Shown one piece after another: positions 29,410-46,000 of a stretch of DNA of 46,392 bases. Each line of letters starts with the position of its first letter. Position 1 is the first letter of the stretch. This DNA is from Atractiella rhizophila (Eukaryota): the NCBI GenBank assembly GCA_021432655.1, contig MU271266.1, positions 66,288 to 112,679 on the forward strand, in the 5' to 3' direction. The translations under genes and the position numbers were made by a program. A model generated the notes under the pieces. It worked only from the letters and a program-made list of their open reading frames with translations, had not been told where the DNA came from and did not search any database.

Positions 29410-32400
29410 TCACGAAGTCTTTCTCCTTTTCTTTGGCCGTCCAGCCGCCTCTTTGTCCCTCTTCTCCTTCAATCCCTTCTCCTTCCACAGCTCCCTCTTC
29501 GCCTCCCTTTCTCTCTCCCTCTTTCTCTCAGTCGAATCCTCGACCTTCTTCGCATACCTCTCCCGCTCCAGACCTTTCTTCTCCTTCCTCTTCTCCCCTT
29601 TCTGTCTCTCAATGGCTCGTAACTGTTGCATCATCACCAGCGCCTTCTTCTCCTCCGGCTGCAGCACGACGGCCCGCTTCTGCATATACGTCTGTTCCTT
29701 CTGTGGACGCGCATTCTTCGTCTTTGAGGCAAAGGGAAGGGAAGACTCCAGAGCGCGTGGGACTCGGAGAGGATTAAACTTGCGCTTTGAACGCTCAATT
29801 TTCTAAACCAAGGGTGAGACATCAGACCTCACTTCAGACATGCGAGGAAAGCGTACCTGGTACTGGGAGTTCAATGGCACAGGAGCTTTCTTTCCTTGCT
29901 CAAGCCGGACCTCTCCAGTCAACCGCATACCTTTCCAAGTTCCTTTATCCTCCAACAGAAGCGAAGACACTGGATTATAATACTGCCTGGGTTTGATCCC
30001 ATACCACGCTCGCAGGAAGATAATGTCGCTAGCTAGAACCTTGTCTTCAAATGTAGCCCTGAATGCTCCTTCTGGACTCTTCAACGCTTTCTTGACTTGC
30101 CCACGAATGCCAGACACCGTGCGAATGTTGGCACCTTCGAACTTTGCGACTTCGAGAGCCGACGTAAACATATCTTTGATGTAAGCTGTGTTCTTGAAGA
30201 TCTTGTACGCTGTTCCCGTCAGCTTGAGCTTTTTGACAATCTTTGGTGCACTGTCTGAGTCAAGGACGACGCCTGTGGCCGCAATACGAAAGGACGATGA
30301 CGAGCCAGAGAGAGAGGTGAAAGCGCAAACTCCAGTGTTCGGTCCGCTGACAGGCCCGTAAAAGGTAGCGAGACAGTGCATGTGCTCAGGTGTGTATTTG
30401 AGCATCCGATGATGCGTTCCATCGTCGAGGGAGTAAATGGGAGTGACTTGAAACCGTCGCCAGCCAACAGAGAGGATGAGAGGGTCGTTTGTCTTCAAAA
30501 TCTTGGGATACCAACGATGCTTCTTTATTCGAACCTTGACGTAATCGAAACTCTCCTCATGTGCTAGGAGACCACCGACGATGAGAGGGAATCGAGGATC
30601 AAATTGCTCCACCAGTTCGGCGGGAACGTTTGAAAGTTCGATTCGAACGTAAGTTCCTGGACGATATCCTTCCAATTCGGCTCGAGCCGTTGGATCTAAA
30701 TCCTTGAAAGCATCGCGGTTCGCTTCAAGACGCCGCGAGATCTCCTCCTTTGCAGTCGTGAAGAAATCTTTCTTCCCTTCTCCATCTCCCTCAGAATCAG
30801 ACGAGCCATCATATTCGCGATCGAATTTCCGCTTCAGCATCTTCTTCTTTCGCTCCAGCTCTTCCTTCTTCTTCGCCTCCTCGTCCTTCTGCTCCCCTTC
30901 TGTTCCATCTTTCTCTAAATCTTCGAAATCCCCGAATTTCTCTGCTCCTTCCTCTTCTGCCGCTTCTTCTCCAGTGATAAAAAGATAACGAAACGAATCA
31001 AGGTCTTGTTCTAGAGCTCTCAACTCCTCGTCATTCGGCAAGGCTCGAAAACGGTCCTCCTCTTCGTCTTCATCTACCTCTTTGACGCGCTTGAAAAGTT
31101 CATCATCATCTTCTTCGTCTTCCTGTTCCTGCACAACACCGCCTCCACGTATACGTCGAGCGTCAAGATCGGTCTCGTACAGCAATCGAGTGATGTCCTT
31201 GGGTTGATCTTTGAGGGACTGAGAGAAGTAATCAGACGCTTTTGACGCGAGGTCCTTCTTCCACTCTGGGTATTCCTCTTCATCCTCTTCCTCGTCAGAT
31301 GGTATATTTCTTCCCTTTTCATCAAATTCCACCTCACCGCCTGCTCCAAAATCTATGTCTGAATCACTGTCCGCGAACTGGAAATCATCCTTCTCTTTCC
31401 CATTTAGACGCGAATTCGTTGATGGCCTCCGATGCCTCCTTTTTTGGAACGATGTCACATCCTCTTCCTCTTCCTCCTCGCCCTCCTCATCGTAGGAATC
31501 AAGCTCGGCTTCCTCTACCTCAGCCATAGGATCGTCCTCGTCGTCCTCATCGTCATCAAAATCATCTGGCTCTCCTTCAAACGTTACCCGTCGCCGCGTT
31601 GCCCCTTTGCTGCTCCCTTCTCCGCGATCGGCCTCGTCTTCCACTGTCAATGTGCCTTTAGAATTTTCGAATAGCCGAATCTGGCTCTTCTCAATACCGT
31701 CTCTCAAAGTGCTCTTCGCCTCTTGGAGGTCCAACACCATCTGCACTCCTTCACCGACCTCTTCATCTGACTCTACTTCCTCGGATCCTTTCTTGGTAAA
31801 ATCCCCCTTCGTGTTGATCCATATTTTCTCCCCATCCCACTCGACCGCCCCTCCTGCTCCTCCTGTCATAGGAGCATGCACGATTTTGTGCTTATCGCTG
31901 AGCTTTCGTTTCCGCTCGCTCTCTTTAGTCGGTAGAGGGCATGGGTCGGATATTCCCACCATTCGAATGACAGGCAGAGAGTCTGTGCCAGACCCTGGGA
32001 GGTGGATCCGCACCGGAGTCGTGGACGTGGGAGGACGAAAAGGTACGCCTCGAACATATCCGTAGAGCGCTATGGTACGGTCGGAAGTGGGGGAGGATTG
32101 AAGGGTAGCGGATGGGGTGAGATCGTCCATCCTATCGGCAAGAACATAGGGGTGAGAGTTTCGAAATGACAACGGACGAAACTTGGCGACGCTGATAAAC
32201 CTATCATCCCCATTTAATAGGTCGCAAGAAGAAGGACCGTGAAGGAGTTACCTGCTCAGGTTTAAAATCTCGCGGTCTGGATAACGGCCATTTAACACTC
32301 CACTTAGATAGAACATTTTGGCTCCATCATATACCTCAGTCCAAAATCTGTGCTTGAGCTTTTTCTTCTGCTCCTTCAATTGTTGGGATGACTTGATTAG

Positions 32401-33495
32401 GTCCAAGTGGGTGAGAACGGCAATGAGTTTGGGAAGACCGTGCGATGACAGCGCAGACAGGCATTCAAATGTTTCCATCTCCAGCCCGAACGATCCATCG
32501 ATGACGAGTAGAACAAGATCTGCGACTTTGGAGACGTCGACCATGGCTCCCAGATCGTTAGGGCATTCCATGAAAGTCAATCGCCTGGTCTTCCCTGTGA
32601 AATATCGCTCAGTGTTGTCACGCTATGGAGGGACGAGACCGAACGCACCACTGACAACAGTAGCAGGGCCTTTAATGTTTGGTAACGTATTCTTCGTATA
32701 CCTCCTGACTAAGCTGCGTATGAGAGTGCTCTTCCCAACTCCGCTTGGTCCAACAACAGCAACGATCACAGGTGGCGGTCCAAGGTCATCGTCTCCTACG
32801 CTCGTGACGACAACAGAGCCTTTCTGTGAGGTCTGACCGCTCCCAGATGCCGTTCCACCAAATGTGCGATCGACGGCCGGAACGTGCAGCTTGTTCTGGT
32901 CCAATTCTACATTTCGCCTGGCTTGCTTCTCTGCTCGCCGGAATGAGCGCGGTGCAAACGCCTTTCCGAAGAACATGTCAGTAACTCGCTTGATGAAGCA
33001 TTTTTTAAATTGTTAAAACTTAAAATCAGAGCAGGACTATGCTGTGGACTCATTTTGCGACTTCTCGAATCGCTGTCAAGCACAGCAGGCGGTATAAGGT
33101 ACAAAGATCTTGCAATAGGAGTAACGTTAGATCAAACTCTTCATGATCGAGGAAGGTGTTCGTCGCACGAAAATTCACAACAGATCCATCCATGAAACAA
33201 GCAGTTGTACAAGATGAACTTCTGAGGAGTCCTCTTCAAATGCAGCCATTCAGCTTCTCTCCCTGAACCTAGAAGAAACACATATTCAAGCTCCTGTATG
33301 AACTCTTAGAAACGAGCTCCCACATCCAGAACTCTCGCTGAGCAAAAATTTGTGGCCCATTTTTGACCCGAGCCCAGCATTACGGAATATAACTCTCACC
33401 TTCGGATTTTTTCCCTTTTCAAACTGCTGCTTCCCTTTGCCCTTCTTATCCTTCGCACCAGTCCTGTGCGGCTTATTCGCTTGCTGGAGATCCAT
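29410..33495 (-). CDS. BMS1: Ribosome biogenesis GTPase Bms1, 4 introns
   Basis: KNPK|AF, P-loop [74 protein letters not shown] and [20 protein letters not shown]. Confidence 0.97.
33022..33148 (-). ncRNA. Candidate intronic box C/D snoRNA in BMS1 intron 1
   Basis: On the minus strand: box C-like ATGAAGA (33144-33138), box D CTGA (33029-33026), short terminal pairing ATCA/TGAT, and an internal 7-bp stem TGCTGTG/CACAGCA enclosing a GCGATT/AGTCGC hairpin. Box D is ~64 nt upstream of the 3' splice site. Target unidentified. Confidence 0.55.
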
Positions 33496-33637
33496 AGCAG
33501 AATCGCTGGAGCTGCTTGCTTTCACCCGAAAAATCTCATAACCCCTGCGGGTGTAAATCCGACATTCCGACATCATCAACCAACTTCGACACGCCGACCT
33601 CCAAGAATTTCCTAACCATTGTTTCAAACTCGTAAAT
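33496..33637. promoter_or_regulatory. Compact bidirectional promoter BMS1/SCS2
   Basis: Divergent ATGs at 33495 (-) and 33638 (+) are only 142 nt apart. Confidence 0.7.
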
Positions 33638-34933
33638 ATGTCAGTAGAGCTTCACCCAGGCGGTATGTTGGGGTTCCCAAGTGAGTATTCTCTCGAAAAT
33701 ACGAAGAAAAACGGCAGCGTGCTGACTGAGCATGGCTTCCTCTTTCCCCTTCCGTCTCAACTCTAGGACCCTTGACACAGCTCGTAAAAAGAAGTTTGAC
33801 CGTCGTAAACCACAACGATGAGCCCGTTATATTCAAAGTATGACCTTCCTCCGTCTCTCTAATGCCAACTTGCTTACGAAAGACTTACCACTTGATGACA
33901 TGGATAGGTCAAGACGACGGCTCCTAAACAGTATTGCGTCCGGCCCAACAGTGGGAGGGTGGAACCTGGACAGAAGGTTGAAGTGCAAGGTGAGCATATC
34001 TCAGCTGTGGATTGGCGTGCGTGTGGTTCGAAGCGAGGAAGTGTGATGTGAACCTATCTTGCGGTGGACCTGTTTGCGTCACCTTTTGGCTCTTGTTGAA
34101 TCTTCCTGATCGTGGAGTCTTTGAATTGTGACTTATCCTAACAAAACCTCTCGCAGTTCTGCTACAACCTATGCGGGAAGATCCCCCACCCGGTGCCAAA
34201 TGCCGAGACAAGTTTCTGGTCCAATCCGCCATCATTCCTGATCCAACGGAGACTCGTCTACCGGAAATTTGGCAAGCCGTCGAACGCGAAGGGAAGGAGG
34301 GAGTGCATGAACAGAAGATTCGGTGCCAGTATCTCCCACCTGTGGACGAGATGCCAAGTCAACATGAGCCTGCCCCGGAGCACACTGAGAGCTCGATCAT
34401 CACCAATGGAAACCAACATGATGAGGTGCGTAGTGATATATTTGCCCAGATTCGCGATCGTTGAAATTGCTTGCGTTTAGGATGCACGCTACAACACCGT
34501 TCGCACATCACCCACGAATGGCTCCATTGTTGCTTCTACTAGAGGTTACGATGCCCCTCCATCTCCCGTTTCGGCGGAGAACAACATTCCTATGAAAAAG
34601 TCTATGTCTTTTGAACAAGCTCCCGACTCAACACCGGCGCGTTCCGCCATCGCGCCCACTGTGGATGAGATGAAGAGCAAGTTGGCAGATTATGTGAAGG
34701 AGATCGAAAGGCTGAAGGAGCAATTGAAGGACAGGAAAGTCGTTTCCGCTGCTGGGGAGAAGGTTGCACATGTGCAACAGGCTGTTATTGGAGCGGATGC
34801 CCCGATCGATGGAGTCAAGATGGAGGTTGTTGCGGCTCTGATGTTTGCTACTTTCCTGTTCACTTGGTTCGTTTCTCACTCTCTGTCTTCCGACAATCTC
34901 TTAATCGCATACATGTCTAGGCTTTTCTTCTAA
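33638..34933 (+). CDS. SCS2: VAMP-associated protein (MSP domain, coiled coil, C-terminal TM)
   Basis: VIFK|VKTTAPKQYCVRPNSGRVEPG and KCRDKFLVQS. Coiled coil EMKSKLADYVKEIERLKEQL. TM VVAALMFATFLFTW|LFF*. Confidence 0.95.
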
Positions 34934-43050: not shown

Positions 43051-46000
43051 TTACTCCTCTTTGAGCATTTTGGTCCAATTGAACGAATCGTACATCTTCT
43101 GGAACGCCTTCACCCTCTCCGGATTACGAGAGCGGTCGATGCGTCTTGGTTTCCTCCACCTCCGCGGCTCCAGCTCAAGCATGTTGCCAATGATCTCAGT
43201 AGCAAAATATCTAGAAGGACGCGTGAGCAGCAAGATGAGAAGGGAGAATGAGCGAACGGACCGAGGGAACTCTGCACCTCCCGATCTTTGCTCGTTATCT
43301 TCATATCCGTCGCCTCCGCCCTCAGGCCCATCGACTCCCTCAATCACATGCCCATAGCCTAACGAGTCCATCAGCTTCACAAGCAGGATAAAAATGGTTA
43401 GACAGACCCTTGTTCGCTTTATAATCCCACCAGACAGCAAAATAGGGGAGAGTGGCGACCATCGATCTTCTCCAGCCCCGTTTTTCGAAGTCGATAAGCT
43501 TTTTGTGCTGGCTCCACTCCTCTTCGGAAGTAACGATGGCTTCCTAGGCTCAAGCAATCAACCTAGTTACTAACTATCATGGCGAGATGCTTACCTTGAA
43601 ATACGCGGGACTGTCATCATACAGCGACCAAGGAACGGGAATACATTCAACGAAAGTGTGCCTTTGTTGTTTGAAAGAAATGACCGTCTCAAAAAAGATA
43701 ACGCCTTTATCCTGAGAAGCGAACATCTGCATCAAAGTTTTCATGAAGTTCTTGAAACCCGATATCAGCCATCTTCTTTCGTTTGCATAGAGAGACAATA
43801 CCTTGACCTCCTCCCAAGTCTCATCGTCGGCTTCAAGCATATTAAGATGATGCTGAAGTGGCACAATGATGCAGTGACCTTCCGTGAGCTCCTCAAATTC
43901 TGTCACTGCGAGATAGGCCCTCGTGCCCAAAGCAACCATCCCAGCCTTTGGTAGGGTGACTCCATCATCACCGTAGCAGAAGGAACAATTCTCGAGCGCC
44001 TTCTTAGTCCGAGCAAAGTCTTGGACCGCGAACCGACGCTTCATCGCATCCGTCTTCATCTTCTTACGCGCGAGACGGTCGGCGTTGTCGTCCATGTAAT
44101 CAAGGTCATCCTGCGACATCGATGCTCAGTCATGACTGATGTGATGGAGGGGAAAGACACACCTCAAACTTCCCATCTTTCGTTATTCGAGATGCAAGCT
44201 CAGAGTCAAGGTTCTTTTGGGTCGCCGCTCCTCCGCCAAAGCGTTCTTGACGAACAAGCTCCTCCAGAGTCATCGAGTCGTCGTCCTTGTTGTATCGAAG
44301 CACTTCTCCAGTCTTCATATCTCTGGTTTCAAACTATCACATCGTCAGCAGTTAGTAATACTGAGAAGAACCGATCACCTTTTCTTCTTCCCTCTTCGCT
44401 TCTTCCTAGCCCGCTTATCCTCCGCGCCTTCGCCATCCTCGCCTCCTTGTCCAGTTCCGACATCGTACAATCTTCCTCTCCCATCCAGGGTTGGAAGTAC
44501 TCTAACCTCCTTCCCACCATTCTCAAGTTCTCCAGGCATTTCTTCTCTCACACCGACAGCCAAGGCGTCTTCGTACTCTTTCTCCAACTCTTTCACCTTC
44601 TTCCCTTCCGGATCCACCAGCTTCGCTNNNNNNNNNNNNNNNNNNNNNNNNNNNNNNNNNNNNNNNNNNNNNNNNNNNNNNNNNNNNNNNNNNNNNNNNN
44701 NNNNNNNNNNNNNNNNNNNNNNNNNNNNNNNNNNNNNNNNNNNNNNNNNNNNNNNNNNNNNNNNNNNNNNNNNNNNNNNNNNNNNNNNNNNNNNNNNNNN
44801 NNNNNNNNNNNNNNNNNNNNNNNNNNNNNNNNNNNNNNNNNNNNNNNNTGCGTCATTTTCTTCGATCCCGAATCCAAAACTGGGCGTGTCATCGTTTCCA
44901 TCGTGGCCGAAGACATGGTGTCGACGGCAGCAAGCTTACTACTTTGCCTTGAGACAGCCGCCAGAGTAGCTTGAGTGGGAGTAAATACGGAAGGAACGGG
45001 AGTGGATGGTTTGGACGCTTGTCTACTTTGCGCTCCTGACGGTGTAGGGGTCGCGAGAGGCGACTCTCCCGGTTTTCGAAAGCTGGAAGAACGCATGCCG
45101 CTTCCTCCCTCAAAGCTGTACCTCGGACCCATTCGACTTCCGCCTCCTGGCTCGGAAGAGAAATACGACCCCTTCCCACCACCGGCTCCTCCTTTTCTTT
45201 CACTACGGCGATCTTCGCGAGCATCCACGATCCGCTTCTCCTCCTCCACAGCACGGAAGGCCTCCATCGACCCAAATCGGTCGATAGCGAGTTCTTCGAG
45301 TGGGATGGAAGGGTCGTCTTCGTGCGCTTCATAGAGCCTCTTGAGTTTCGTAATCCTCCAAGAGGAGCCAGCTGATCCAGCGACTGGGGTACTGGCACCG
45401 CTGCCGCCGTTACCATCCTTCGTGGTAGAAGGGATTTCACCCTTCCTCCAATAATCCCGATTAAGCTCTCTCGCGCTCTTCCCTAACATTTCTTCAGGAG
45501 CGGGTGCTAGCCCTTTCTCCTTTTTCTTCCTCTCCCGACCCAAATCTCCAAAGTCCCCAATTCCAAACATGCCTTTGCCTCCTTCTGCCGTCGAGCTTCC
45601 GACGTCTCCCTCGCCGTATCCTCCGGTGTAGTCTTCCTCCTCCATCTCCCAAGGACGAGACCTTTTGGAGGGCATGGAGCCGACAGCAAATGTTCCGCCG
45701 TCTACTTCGTGCCTTCCGTCCATTTCCACAGGTACGATTATGGGTGCCTCGTCTAGCATAGAATCCGTGATTTTGGACGCAGAATGAGTTGAGTGAGGGA
45801 GATACGGTGGAACGGTGGATGGGGCGGAGGAAGATGTTAACGCGTTAGCTGCAGATGTCGGAATAGAGGAGATCGACGGTGGCTACCGAAATACAGCAAT
45901 AAGTTCAAACTCCAGTTACTATGTCAGATACGTACAATGAATGGTTCACCACCTTCTATGTTAGAGCCGGAGGTACTAGCAACAGGCGCTTTCTCAGCCC

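Follow-up and report, generated by a model that had tools for sequence, protein, structure and literature searches.

The first intron of the BMS1 gene of Atractiella rhizophila is removed from the pre-mRNA by splicing, exactly at 33400|32961, and it probably encodes no functional box C/D snoRNA. Among the explanations that we weighed for its length and its motifs, we lean towards an ordinary spliceosomal intron, of a length uncommon in this genome, that lies beside a compact divergent promoter. All positions refer to the window, i.e., the whole stretch of 46,392 nt that was analysed. The host gene, on the minus strand, is BMS1, with an 814-aa ORF that matches the Pfam families RIBIOP_C (E 2.8e-98) and AARP2CN (E 1.9e-17), and with P-loop/GTPase matches in exons 2–3. 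The locus is laid out as follows:

33400..33495, minus strand: BMS1 exon 1, with the ATG at 33495 and 32 codons
32962..33399, minus strand: BMS1 intron 1, 438 nt, GTGAGA...AAG (GT..AG), phase 0
32977..32981, minus strand: likely branch site CUGAC, assigned by consensus
32649..32961, minus strand: BMS1 exon 2 (P-loop)
33572..33988, plus strand: 5' part of the divergent neighbour (MSP/VAP-like), with the ATG at 33638 and introns at 33681-33766 and 33838-33907

The junction between exons 1 and 2 (...GKNPK|AFAP...) keeps the reading frame, and the joint itself is present in two RNA-like contigs of sequencing run X1, in both of which the last letters of exon 1 account for the 10 loose letters past 32964. 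X1 was the only sequencing run that contained the locus (0.23 of words present), and none listed as RNA did. Across 32300-33900 it comprises spliced mRNA-like contigs that leave the intron and most of exon 1 uncovered, a pattern that says nothing on small RNA. Two loose ends of X1 contigs, at 33569 and 33572, are absent from the window at up to two mismatches and are probably adapter, chimera or unassembled sequence; a third belongs to the following exon of the neighbour.

The first-pass annotation had described the intron as oversized, and this is borne out by comparison with five further introns measured in the window (BMS1 plus the neighbour gene), which range from 51 to 86 nt. The other BMS1 introns are 54 nt (32648..32595, whose joint is also found in an X1 contig), 51 nt (32251..32201) and 54 nt (29856..29803), making intron 1 ~8 times the length of the others in its gene, and the neighbour gene has introns of 86 nt and 70 nt. 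No repeat or transposon copies in the intron matched elsewhere in the window, and a tRNA scan gave no match. The extra length might instead be explained by some other element, namely a 5'-half H/ACA snoRNA, a plus-strand RNA that is antisense or transcribed independently, or else an alternative start site or exon, all of which we take together as unlikely. Read in frame, the intron meets a stop after 37 codons, and no alternative splice joint occurs among the X1 contigs, both of which count against such an explanation. An H/ACA snoRNA is built of a hairpin, ANANNA, another hairpin and an ACA 3 nt from the end. A similar layout can be drawn, in which a hairpin at intron positions 23-101 precedes ACAGGA and a further hairpin leads to ACA at position 191, but 9 of 30 shuffles equalled it, and the 3' hairpin has branches and is weak (-13 kcal/mol).

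For the ordinary, long intron that we prefer, the genomic setting suggests a use for the additional sequence. The start codons of BMS1 and of the strongly expressed MSP/VAP-like gene are divergent and only ~140 bp apart, so that BMS1 control elements have almost no upstream room; the neighbour's transcript contig begins at 33572, and the BMS1 ATG lies at 33495. Purely by inference, the extra intron length may carry promoter-proximal regulatory sequence. Long first introns with regulatory or enhancing roles are among the intron functions given in PMC8476143, and the BMS1 intron shares with them its closeness to the start codon, a length far beyond that of the internal introns and a very short divergent intergenic region.

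The 3' half of the intron had been put forward in the first-pass annotation as a structured box C/D-like RNA. Every motif that it listed was recovered in place, including box D at 64 nt from the 3' splice site:

33138..33144, minus strand: box C-like heptamer ATGAAGA (AUGAAGA), in which A replaces U at position 5
33026..33029, minus strand: box D-like CTGA (CUGA), with the 3' splice site 64 nt away and the putative branch-point A 47 nt downstream
33081..33087, minus strand: 5' arm of a 7-bp stem, TGCTGTG (UGCUGUG)
33040..33046, minus strand: 3' arm of the same stem, CACAGCA
33057..33073, minus strand: inner hairpin GCGATT/AGTCGC (GCGAUU/AGUCGC), 6 bp with one G-U, containing most of a 14-nt element described below
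33076..33079, minus strand: TTGA (UUGA), proposed D' box
33048..33053, minus strand: ATGAGT (AUGAGU), candidate C' box
33151..33156, minus strand: CCTTCC, upstream of box C and outside the box C-box D interval
33116..33123, minus strand: TACTCCTA
33033..33039, minus strand: TAGTCCT

The heptamer AUGAAGA has one mismatch to box C (RUGAUGA) and retains the G-A core; no perfect box C is present on the minus strand of the intron. With CTGA it makes up the sole pair of a box-C-like heptamer (one mismatch) and a CTGA on that strand, and the 119 nt from the start of the candidate box C to box D is a distance that suits a C/D snoRNA. As a bare 4-mer, CUGA is expected by chance. The plus strand of the same intron offers a comparable pair, AAGATGA at 33211 and CTGA at 33338, with a better terminal stem of 4 bp. 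This pair argues for the plus-strand RNA mentioned above, but its candidate guide forms 9 pairs only, at the low end of the null distribution. Over 438 nt of such composition, chance gives C/D-like motifs and small stems like those in the 3' half.

As a class, box C/D snoRNAs are stable small RNAs to which Snu13, Nop56, Nop58 and fibrillarin bind, and their terminal stem brings boxes C and D together (the C-stem of the kink-turn). Outside the candidate boxes, the best terminal stem was 2 bp, and the flank duplexes of 10, 15 and 20 nt had energies of +0.8, +0.1 and -1.9 kcal/mol, with 322/500, 381/500 and 164/500 shuffles, respectively, doing as well. What had been taken for terminal pairing turned out to be an extension of the box-internal stem, in which AGAG after box C pairs with CUCU before box D. 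Nor is the epithet 'structured' supported, as folding was no better than that of shuffles for either the whole intron (z +1.12; 87 of 100 shuffles at least as stable) or the 141-nt candidate (z +0.95; 167 of 200). The segment 33087..33040, with its 7-bp stem, internal loop and hairpin, was also considered as an H/ACA hairpin and was rejected, since neither an H nor an ACA box comes immediately after the lower stem.

Box mutations, the terminal stem and structural stability are the determinants of C/D snoRNA expression given in PMC12309372, and by these the candidate is pseudogene-like. It could be a decaying relic of a former intronic C/D snoRNA that has kept box D and part of box C but has lost its terminal stem and no longer yields a stable RNA. 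Such a relic would account for the intron length, and the combination of a box C mismatch, an intact box D and neither a terminal stem nor a stable fold is the pattern of non-expressed snoRNA copies, which share with the candidate a box mutation, an unstable terminal stem and an unremarkable folding energy (PMC12309372). We nevertheless consider this origin very unlikely. The intron contains a perfect 14-nt antisense element (see below), which would hardly outlast the boxes, and no paralogous snoRNA was found within the window; unlike snoRNA pseudogenes, the candidate also has an expressed host in BMS1 and no known parent snoRNA. According to PMC12309372, pseudogenes make up 0% of the annotated S. 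cerevisiae C/D snoRNAs, and they may be rare in fungi.

The antisense element of a box C/D guide is 10-21 nt long and ends beside box D or D' (the D/D'+5 rule). Complementarity to rRNA was assessed against a fungal set drawn from 62 contaminant rDNA contigs, which were retrieved from genome contigs with a 25S primer word (0 hits in viral contigs), annotated with Rfam and extended through three assemblies; this set represents other fungi and not the species' own rRNA, contains no complete basidiomycete rRNA set, and has a plant-like sequence in place of fungal 25S past model position 2289. Over the 20 nt upstream of box D the complementarity score reached 28, a value that 179 of 1000 shuffles and 216 of 1491 random 20-mers from the window also attained. 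Anchored on the boxes, the D guide forms 13 pairs with one mismatch and one G-U, its best target being in a variable part of 18S, and the UUGA (D') guide forms 11 pairs with one mismatch; for such box-anchored guides, 62 of 298 random 22-mers reach at least 13 pairs. Antisense elements beside box D or the proposed D' are therefore complementary to the fungal rRNA set at chance level only, in agreement with the first-pass annotation, which had itself found no clean methylation guide.

That annotation had read functional hints into short rRNA matches; the matches exist, but the hints are not sustained. GGAAGG, to which CCTTCC is complementary, was located at the 18S 3' end in the rDNA, and GGTAGGACTACCC or GGTAGGAGTACCC at the 25S 5' end, while the corresponding matches in the intron, of 6-8 nt, are at chance level. 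Since GGTAGGACTACCC and GGTAGGAGTACCC are lineage variants of one site, one organism would match only one of TAGTCCT and TACTCCTA, and the match of these words to the 25S 5' end is what chance would give. The same holds for CCTTCC as an element resembling an acetylation guide, which is a chance-level 6-mer outside the box C-box D interval. Acetylation guides have two antisense elements that flank the target cytidine in 18S helix 34 or 45, and no second element was found among the complementarities scoring at least 29. An acetylation guide of the snR4/snR45/U13 type was accordingly rejected, with only the one 6-mer CCTTCC, upstream of box C, to represent it.

One longer complementarity, unmentioned in the first-pass annotation, lies inside the candidate:

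33060..33073, minus strand: 14-nt element, a perfect Watson-Crick complement of fungal 18S rRNA (positions 253-266 of the 18S sequence L116)
33056..33059, minus strand: CGCA, directly 3' of the 14-nt element at the required D' site, with 2/4 bases matching CUGA

At least 14 perfect pairs were reached by 39 of 5000 shuffled introns, and by 8 of 5000 shuffles inside the 119-nt box C-box D part. Over both strands of the 46-kb window it is the only such 14-mer against the fungal rRNA set, where 1.86 were expected. The 18S target 14-mer is present in three of four fungal 18S sequences, including a basidiomycete-like one, and the fourth differs by one substitution. The signal is confined to the perfect Watson-Crick criterion, because with more permissive scoring, in which G-U pairs count, mismatches cost and length is free, 330 of the 420 window blocks of 438 nt equal it. 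The order along the RNA is box C, 64 nt including a hairpin, the antisense element, CGCA, AA, AUGAGU, 17 nt and CUGA; no recognisable D' box adjoins the element, which lies mostly inside the 6-bp hairpin, and the bipartite or accessory pairings near the target were weak looped duplexes only. The targeted part of 18S is presumably the linker and the 5' strand of the helix after expansion segment 3, which we take to be helix 10. We know of no Nm site or snoRNA contact at this position, and among the C/D targets listed for N. crassa none falls at 18S 200-299. The 14-nt match is what keeps alive the generic idea of an orphan or atypical snoRNA.

Under this idea, the 3' half of the intron would be a lineage-specific, non-canonical box C/D-type snoRNA of ~119 nt (33144..33026) with 33073..33060 as its working element, which we entertain as a tentative minority reading. 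Debranching of the spliced intron, followed by exonucleolytic trimming, would set the RNA free, and its expression would be tied to that of BMS1. The RNA might guide methylation from a degenerate D' (CGCA), in which case the D'+5 rule predicts the C at position 257 of the L116 18S as the target, or, more likely, act through modification-independent, chaperone-type pairing with the 18S pre-rRNA, as in U14 domain A or snR190. A fuller version, which we regard as rather doubtful, is that BMS1 intron 1 carries a C/D-type snoRNA not described before, specific to the lineage and degenerate in its kink-turn core. Its 14-nt element would keep the 5' strand of a helix in the 18S 5' domain open during small-subunit assembly or guide an unreported 2'-O-methylation there, and the RNA would be co-transcribed, in fixed proportion, with the GTPase that drives this step.

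A snoRNA of this kind would make sense of a rare perfect complementarity to a target that is conserved in fungal 18S, and of the UGA-containing C'-like box that follows 6 nt past the element with box D 17 nt further, a spacing that fits C/D snoRNAs. The box-internal stem is lengthened by G-C, A-U and G-C pairs, box D keeps its 64 nt to the 3' splice site, and the intron is an oversized one in a ribosome-biogenesis host, from a group of organisms in which intronic C/D snoRNAs are the rule. It would, however, have box C as AUGAAGA, neither a terminal stem nor excess structure, and only two of the four bases of CUGA after an antisense element that is largely sequestered in a hairpin; its D and UUGA guides are at chance, the permissive score removes the signal of the 14-mer, it has no Rfam relative and, to our knowledge, the 18S site is neither an Nm position nor a snoRNA contact. 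In favour of the snoRNA, fungal C' and D' boxes are often degenerate (PMC2780460).

Known systems resemble the candidate in part. U14 domain A, snR190 box A, U3 and U8 provide chaperone-type antisense elements that act without methylation. They have in common with the candidate 13-14 nt of uninterrupted rRNA complementarity away from the D/D'+5 position, but they are conserved, experimentally demonstrated RNAs with canonical C/D cores, and the 18S site of the candidate is not a known snoRNA contact. snR4, snR45 and U13 are C/D snoRNAs with a non-methylation antisense function on 18S, as the candidate would have, whereas its 14-nt element is directed at a different region of 18S, where no C stays unpaired. 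In Cryptococcus, U14 and snR190 have been identified separately, within introns of another gene (preprint 10.1101/2024.10.08.617225).

The intronic location itself is common in fungi, with 45 of 55 C/D snoRNAs intronic in N. crassa (PMC2780460) and 83.6% of 67 in the basidiomycete Cryptococcus (preprint 10.1101/2023.12.08.570810). Like fungal intronic C/D snoRNAs, the candidate, ~119 nt in length, is the only one in its intron, has a ribosome-biogenesis host, a UGA-type C' box and space enough for a pair of guides, and places its CUGA ~64 nt ahead of the 3' splice site. In N. crassa, C/D snoRNAs lie mainly 41-60 nt from the 5' splice site and 86% have consensus C and D boxes (PMC2780460), whereas 255 nt separate the 5' splice site from the start of the candidate. 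In Cryptococcus, C/D snoRNAs are described as carrying both boxes in their classical form, together with a kink-turn (preprint 10.1101/2023.12.08.570810); against this fungal background, the candidate has a box C mismatch and lacks a terminal stem, a D/D' guide above chance and an Rfam relative.

A search of the whole window with Rfam gave 0 matches at gathering scores and 0 at E <= 0.5. Within the intron, the covariance-model check suggested along with the snoRNA claim left the minus strand blank even at E <= 10. Three matches, all on the plus strand, had E-values of 0.99-2.8 and 12.5-17.4 bits, compared with gathering scores of 40-90; at E about 1 they might be quoted for a plus-strand RNA, but such E-values are those of chance. 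The blank on the minus strand is weak evidence because fungal snoRNA sequences diverge beyond close relatives, their conservation being poor except among these (preprint 10.1101/2023.12.08.570810).

Homologous introns were sought through the host gene. A metagenome scan with BMS1 exon 2 returned 76 loci, nearly all by the P-loop match alone, and none of the 76 matched exon 3 or the 814-aa ORF (tblastn, E <= 1e-4); Rfam gave no match on the six loci with the longest matches. The 82-aa plus-strand translation across the candidate found no orthologous ORF in a representative-library search, where its single match (E 2.1e-4) was in a 1482-aa protein, and the protein clusters for the taxon were only broad eukaryotic BMS1 clusters. 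A literature search found no paper on fungal BMS1 introns. 'BMS1' is not mentioned in the main text of PMC8476143 (nor in its supplement), PMC5824354, or the preprints 10.1101/2024.10.08.617225 and 10.1101/2023.12.08.570810, both of which place their host-gene lists in supplements.

If the negative reading is right, BMS1 has an ordinary long first intron and the lesson is a practical one, that motif sets arise by chance: a one-mismatch box C, a CUGA and a few short stems are the chance expectation within a few hundred bases, and even the other strand of this intron yields a rival box pair. If the snoRNA reading were true, the intron would reveal a new contact site on 18S for an RNA hosted by a small-subunit assembly GTPase, and would show an assembly factor and an assembly RNA being produced together. 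It would add, modestly but genuinely, to what little is known of basidiomycete snoRNAs.

BMS1 is encoded on the minus strand at 29.8–33.5 kb, where its 814-aa ORF matches RIBIOP_C (E 2.8e-98) and AARP2CN (E 1.9e-17), with P-loop and GTPase matches in exons 2–3. The only public run containing the locus (X1, whose kind is not on record) provides contigs that carry spliced joints. Two of these stop at 32964 and continue with ten extra letters that match the final bases of exon 1, and thus the joint 33400|32961 is in use. The features of the region are as follows.

33495..33400, minus strand: BMS1 exon 1, last residues ...GKNPK
33399..32962, minus strand: BMS1 intron 1, 438 nt, GT..AG, phase 0
beginning at 32961, minus strand: BMS1 exon 2, first residues AFAPRS...
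33572-33988, plus strand: 5' part of an MSP/VAP-like gene (Pfam Motile_Sperm E 1e-8, one exon), divergent from BMS1
33681-33766 (86 nt) and 33838-33907 (70 nt), plus strand: introns of the MSP/VAP-like gene

The first-pass annotation had called intron 1 oversized, and rightly so, since the other BMS1 introns measured 54, 51 and 54 nt and those of the neighboring gene 86 and 70 nt. Exon 2 (32854-32964) occurs in X1 as two contig versions; the first agrees fully with the window, whereas the second shows 7 differences over 111 nt, which suggests that two haplotypes (e.g., of a dikaryon) or two strains were sampled. Elsewhere in the window, 44628-44848 is an assembly gap of 221 N.

A transcript contig of the MSP/VAP-like gene begins at 33572, with its ATG at 33638, ~140 bp from that of BMS1 (33495); this spacing and the contig start imply a very compact bidirectional promoter common to both genes. 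With so little room between the start codons, it is reasonable to suppose that the long intron 1 may hold BMS1 control sequence. Contig depth in X1 was ~1100 for the MSP/VAP-like gene vs. ~75 for BMS1, although depth reflects expression poorly. At 33569-33572 three short X1 contigs (52, 53 and 262 nt) start, bearing 19–23 loose letters that are absent from the window and that might come from adapter, from a chimera or from an exon far upstream.

Within intron 1, the proposal was a structured box C/D-like RNA, here delimited as the 119 nt from a box C-like heptamer (33144..33138) to a box D-like CUGA (33029..33026) on the minus strand. Every word named was found at its position and the description of the sequence is correct, although such motifs carry small weight. 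AUGAAGA is the sole box-C-like heptamer (at most one mismatch) with a CUGA at usable distance on this strand of the intron. The reported terminal pairing is the box-internal stem prolonged (AGAG with CUCU); beyond the boxes at most 2 bp form, and flank duplexes of +0.8, +0.1 and −1.9 kcal/mol were equalled by 322, 381 and 164 of 500 shuffled flanks, respectively. Nor did the term "structured" hold, as both intron 1 (z +1.12; 87/100 shuffles as good) and the 141-nt candidate (z +0.95; 167/200) folded slightly worse than shuffles, and because of this the 7-bp stem (33087..33081 with 33046..33040) and its nested hairpin are not evidence of selected structure. Rfam searches of the whole window were blank both at gathering scores and with E ≤ 0.5 as the cutoff, while at E ≤ 10 intron 1 returned three matches, all on the plus strand (E 0.99–2.8), and its minus strand had none. 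No tRNA or repeated element was found in the scans.

Two further arrangements in the intron were considered and rejected. A plus-strand pair (AAGATGA...CTGA, 33211-33341, 131 nt, antisense) has a 4-bp terminal stem, better than that of the minus-strand candidate, and overlaps the three Rfam C/D matches (E ~1); it was judged to be chance because its guide lacks rRNA complementarity (9 pairs), and its presence on the opposite strand shows how easily C/D-like pairs arise. An H/ACA-like arrangement in the 5' half (33208-33376, minus strand, intron positions 23-191), in which a 79-nt hairpin (−22 kcal/mol) is followed by ACAGGA, by a second hairpin that is weak and branched, and by ACA, had an equivalent in 9 of 30 shuffled introns. 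We consider it improbable that intron 1 holds some other element.

In published surveys, C/D snoRNAs are mostly intronic in N. crassa (45/55, PMC2780460) and in Cryptococcus (83.6% of 67, with classical boxes, 10.1101/2023.12.08.570810), which makes a snoRNA more likely a priori where, as here, a ribosome-biogenesis gene has a long intron. Beyond close relatives only the boxes of the Cryptococcus snoRNAs are conserved in sequence (10.1101/2023.12.08.570810), and therefore the Rfam blank is weak evidence. The same sources nevertheless tell against the candidate for its non-canonical box C, absent terminal stem and 5' distance: in N. crassa, C and D boxes are consensus in 86%, C' and D' are degenerate, and most C/D snoRNAs lie 41–60 nt from the 5' splice site (PMC2780460), compared with 255 nt here. 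Non-expressed C/D copies are described as having mutated boxes together with terminal stems and folds that are weak (PMC12309372); that intron 1 carries a decayed snoRNA relic seems to us very improbable. Cryptococcus U14 and snR190 are placed in introns of a gene other than BMS1 (10.1101/2024.10.08.617225), and the main texts of the papers and preprints searched made no mention of a snoRNA in BMS1. Exon 2 retrieved 76 metagenome loci, none of which carries BMS1, and 1.8 billion representative proteins queried with the translated region (plus-strand) gave no orthologous ORF.

As Rfam detected no rDNA within the window, guides were compared with eukaryotic rDNA contaminating prokaryote assemblies, annotated with Rfam. 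L116 supplied 18S and 5.8S of ascomycete-like type and L084 a 25S of that type reaching only model position 2289, while L113 is a complete plant-like set and L117 and L139-L141 are partial basidiomycete-like pieces. Short fungal or plant rDNA contigs (L077-L141) contaminate many prokaryote assemblies and MAGs, a single Granulicella assembly having at least a dozen distinct 25S 5' ends. The rRNA words named in the first-pass annotation are genuine, with GGAAGG at the 18S 3' end and GGTAGGACTACCC (in other fungi GGTAGGAGTACCC, a variant of the same site) at the 25S 5' end, but the matches are 6–8-mers only. CCTTCC (33156..33151), suggested as an acetylation-guide-like element, has its complement in GGAAGG at the 18S 3' end, but is a 6-mer lying 5' of box C, and a mature snoRNA would have lost it by trimming. 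The rRNA complementarity score of the 20 nt preceding box D was equalled by 179/1000 shuffles and 216/1491 random 20-mers. The box-anchored D guide pairs with a variable 18S stretch through 13 pairs interrupted by a central mismatch, and that preceding the proposed D' (UUGA, 33079..33076) forms 11; since at least 13 pairs arose in 62/298 random 22-mers, both lie in the chance range, and canonical methylation-guide function is not supported.

One match stands apart. Positions 33073..33060 are a perfect Watson-Crick complement of 14 nt at 18S positions 253-266 of L116, a target shared by a further ascomycete-like 18S (L093) and a basidiomycete-like one (L139), altered by one substitution in another fungal 18S (L140) and absent from three plant-like 18S. 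As the only 14-mer against the fungal rRNA set on both strands of the whole window (1.86 expected), its count is ordinary; what is unusual is where it falls. Matches of at least 14 nt occurred in 39/5000 shuffled introns, in 8/5000 inside the 119-nt part, and, when the natural sequence of the window was cut into half-overlapping 438-nt tiles, in 6/414 of these, intron 1 included among the six. The element is followed 3' by CGCA, AA, AUGAGU (33053..33048, a C' candidate), 17 nt and CUGA, a spacing compatible with a C/D layout. The match is weakened by a permissive score (G-U and mismatches, any length) equalled in 330/420 blocks, by CGCA, which is no D' box, directly after it, by burial mostly within a 6-bp hairpin, by the lack of a second complementarity beside its 18S target, and in that this part of 18S is not known to carry a modification or snoRNA contact. 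The N. crassa C/D target list has none at 18S 200-299.

Our weighing of the readings is judgement rather than computation: a fair snoRNA prior was cut for the imperfect box C, absent terminal stem and absent canonical guide, and the 14-nt match was credited about tenfold. The reading thereby modestly favored is a first intron that is long but ordinary and whose motifs are due to chance. A functional C/D-type antisense RNA, for which the 14-nt match, suitably spaced, is the only favorable result and against which those three deficits count, is possible but doubtful; the evidence does not establish a structured box C/D RNA, which on balance is unlikely. The 14-nt complementarity to 18S was nonetheless unexpected, and is a reason to keep the snoRNA idea alive for now.
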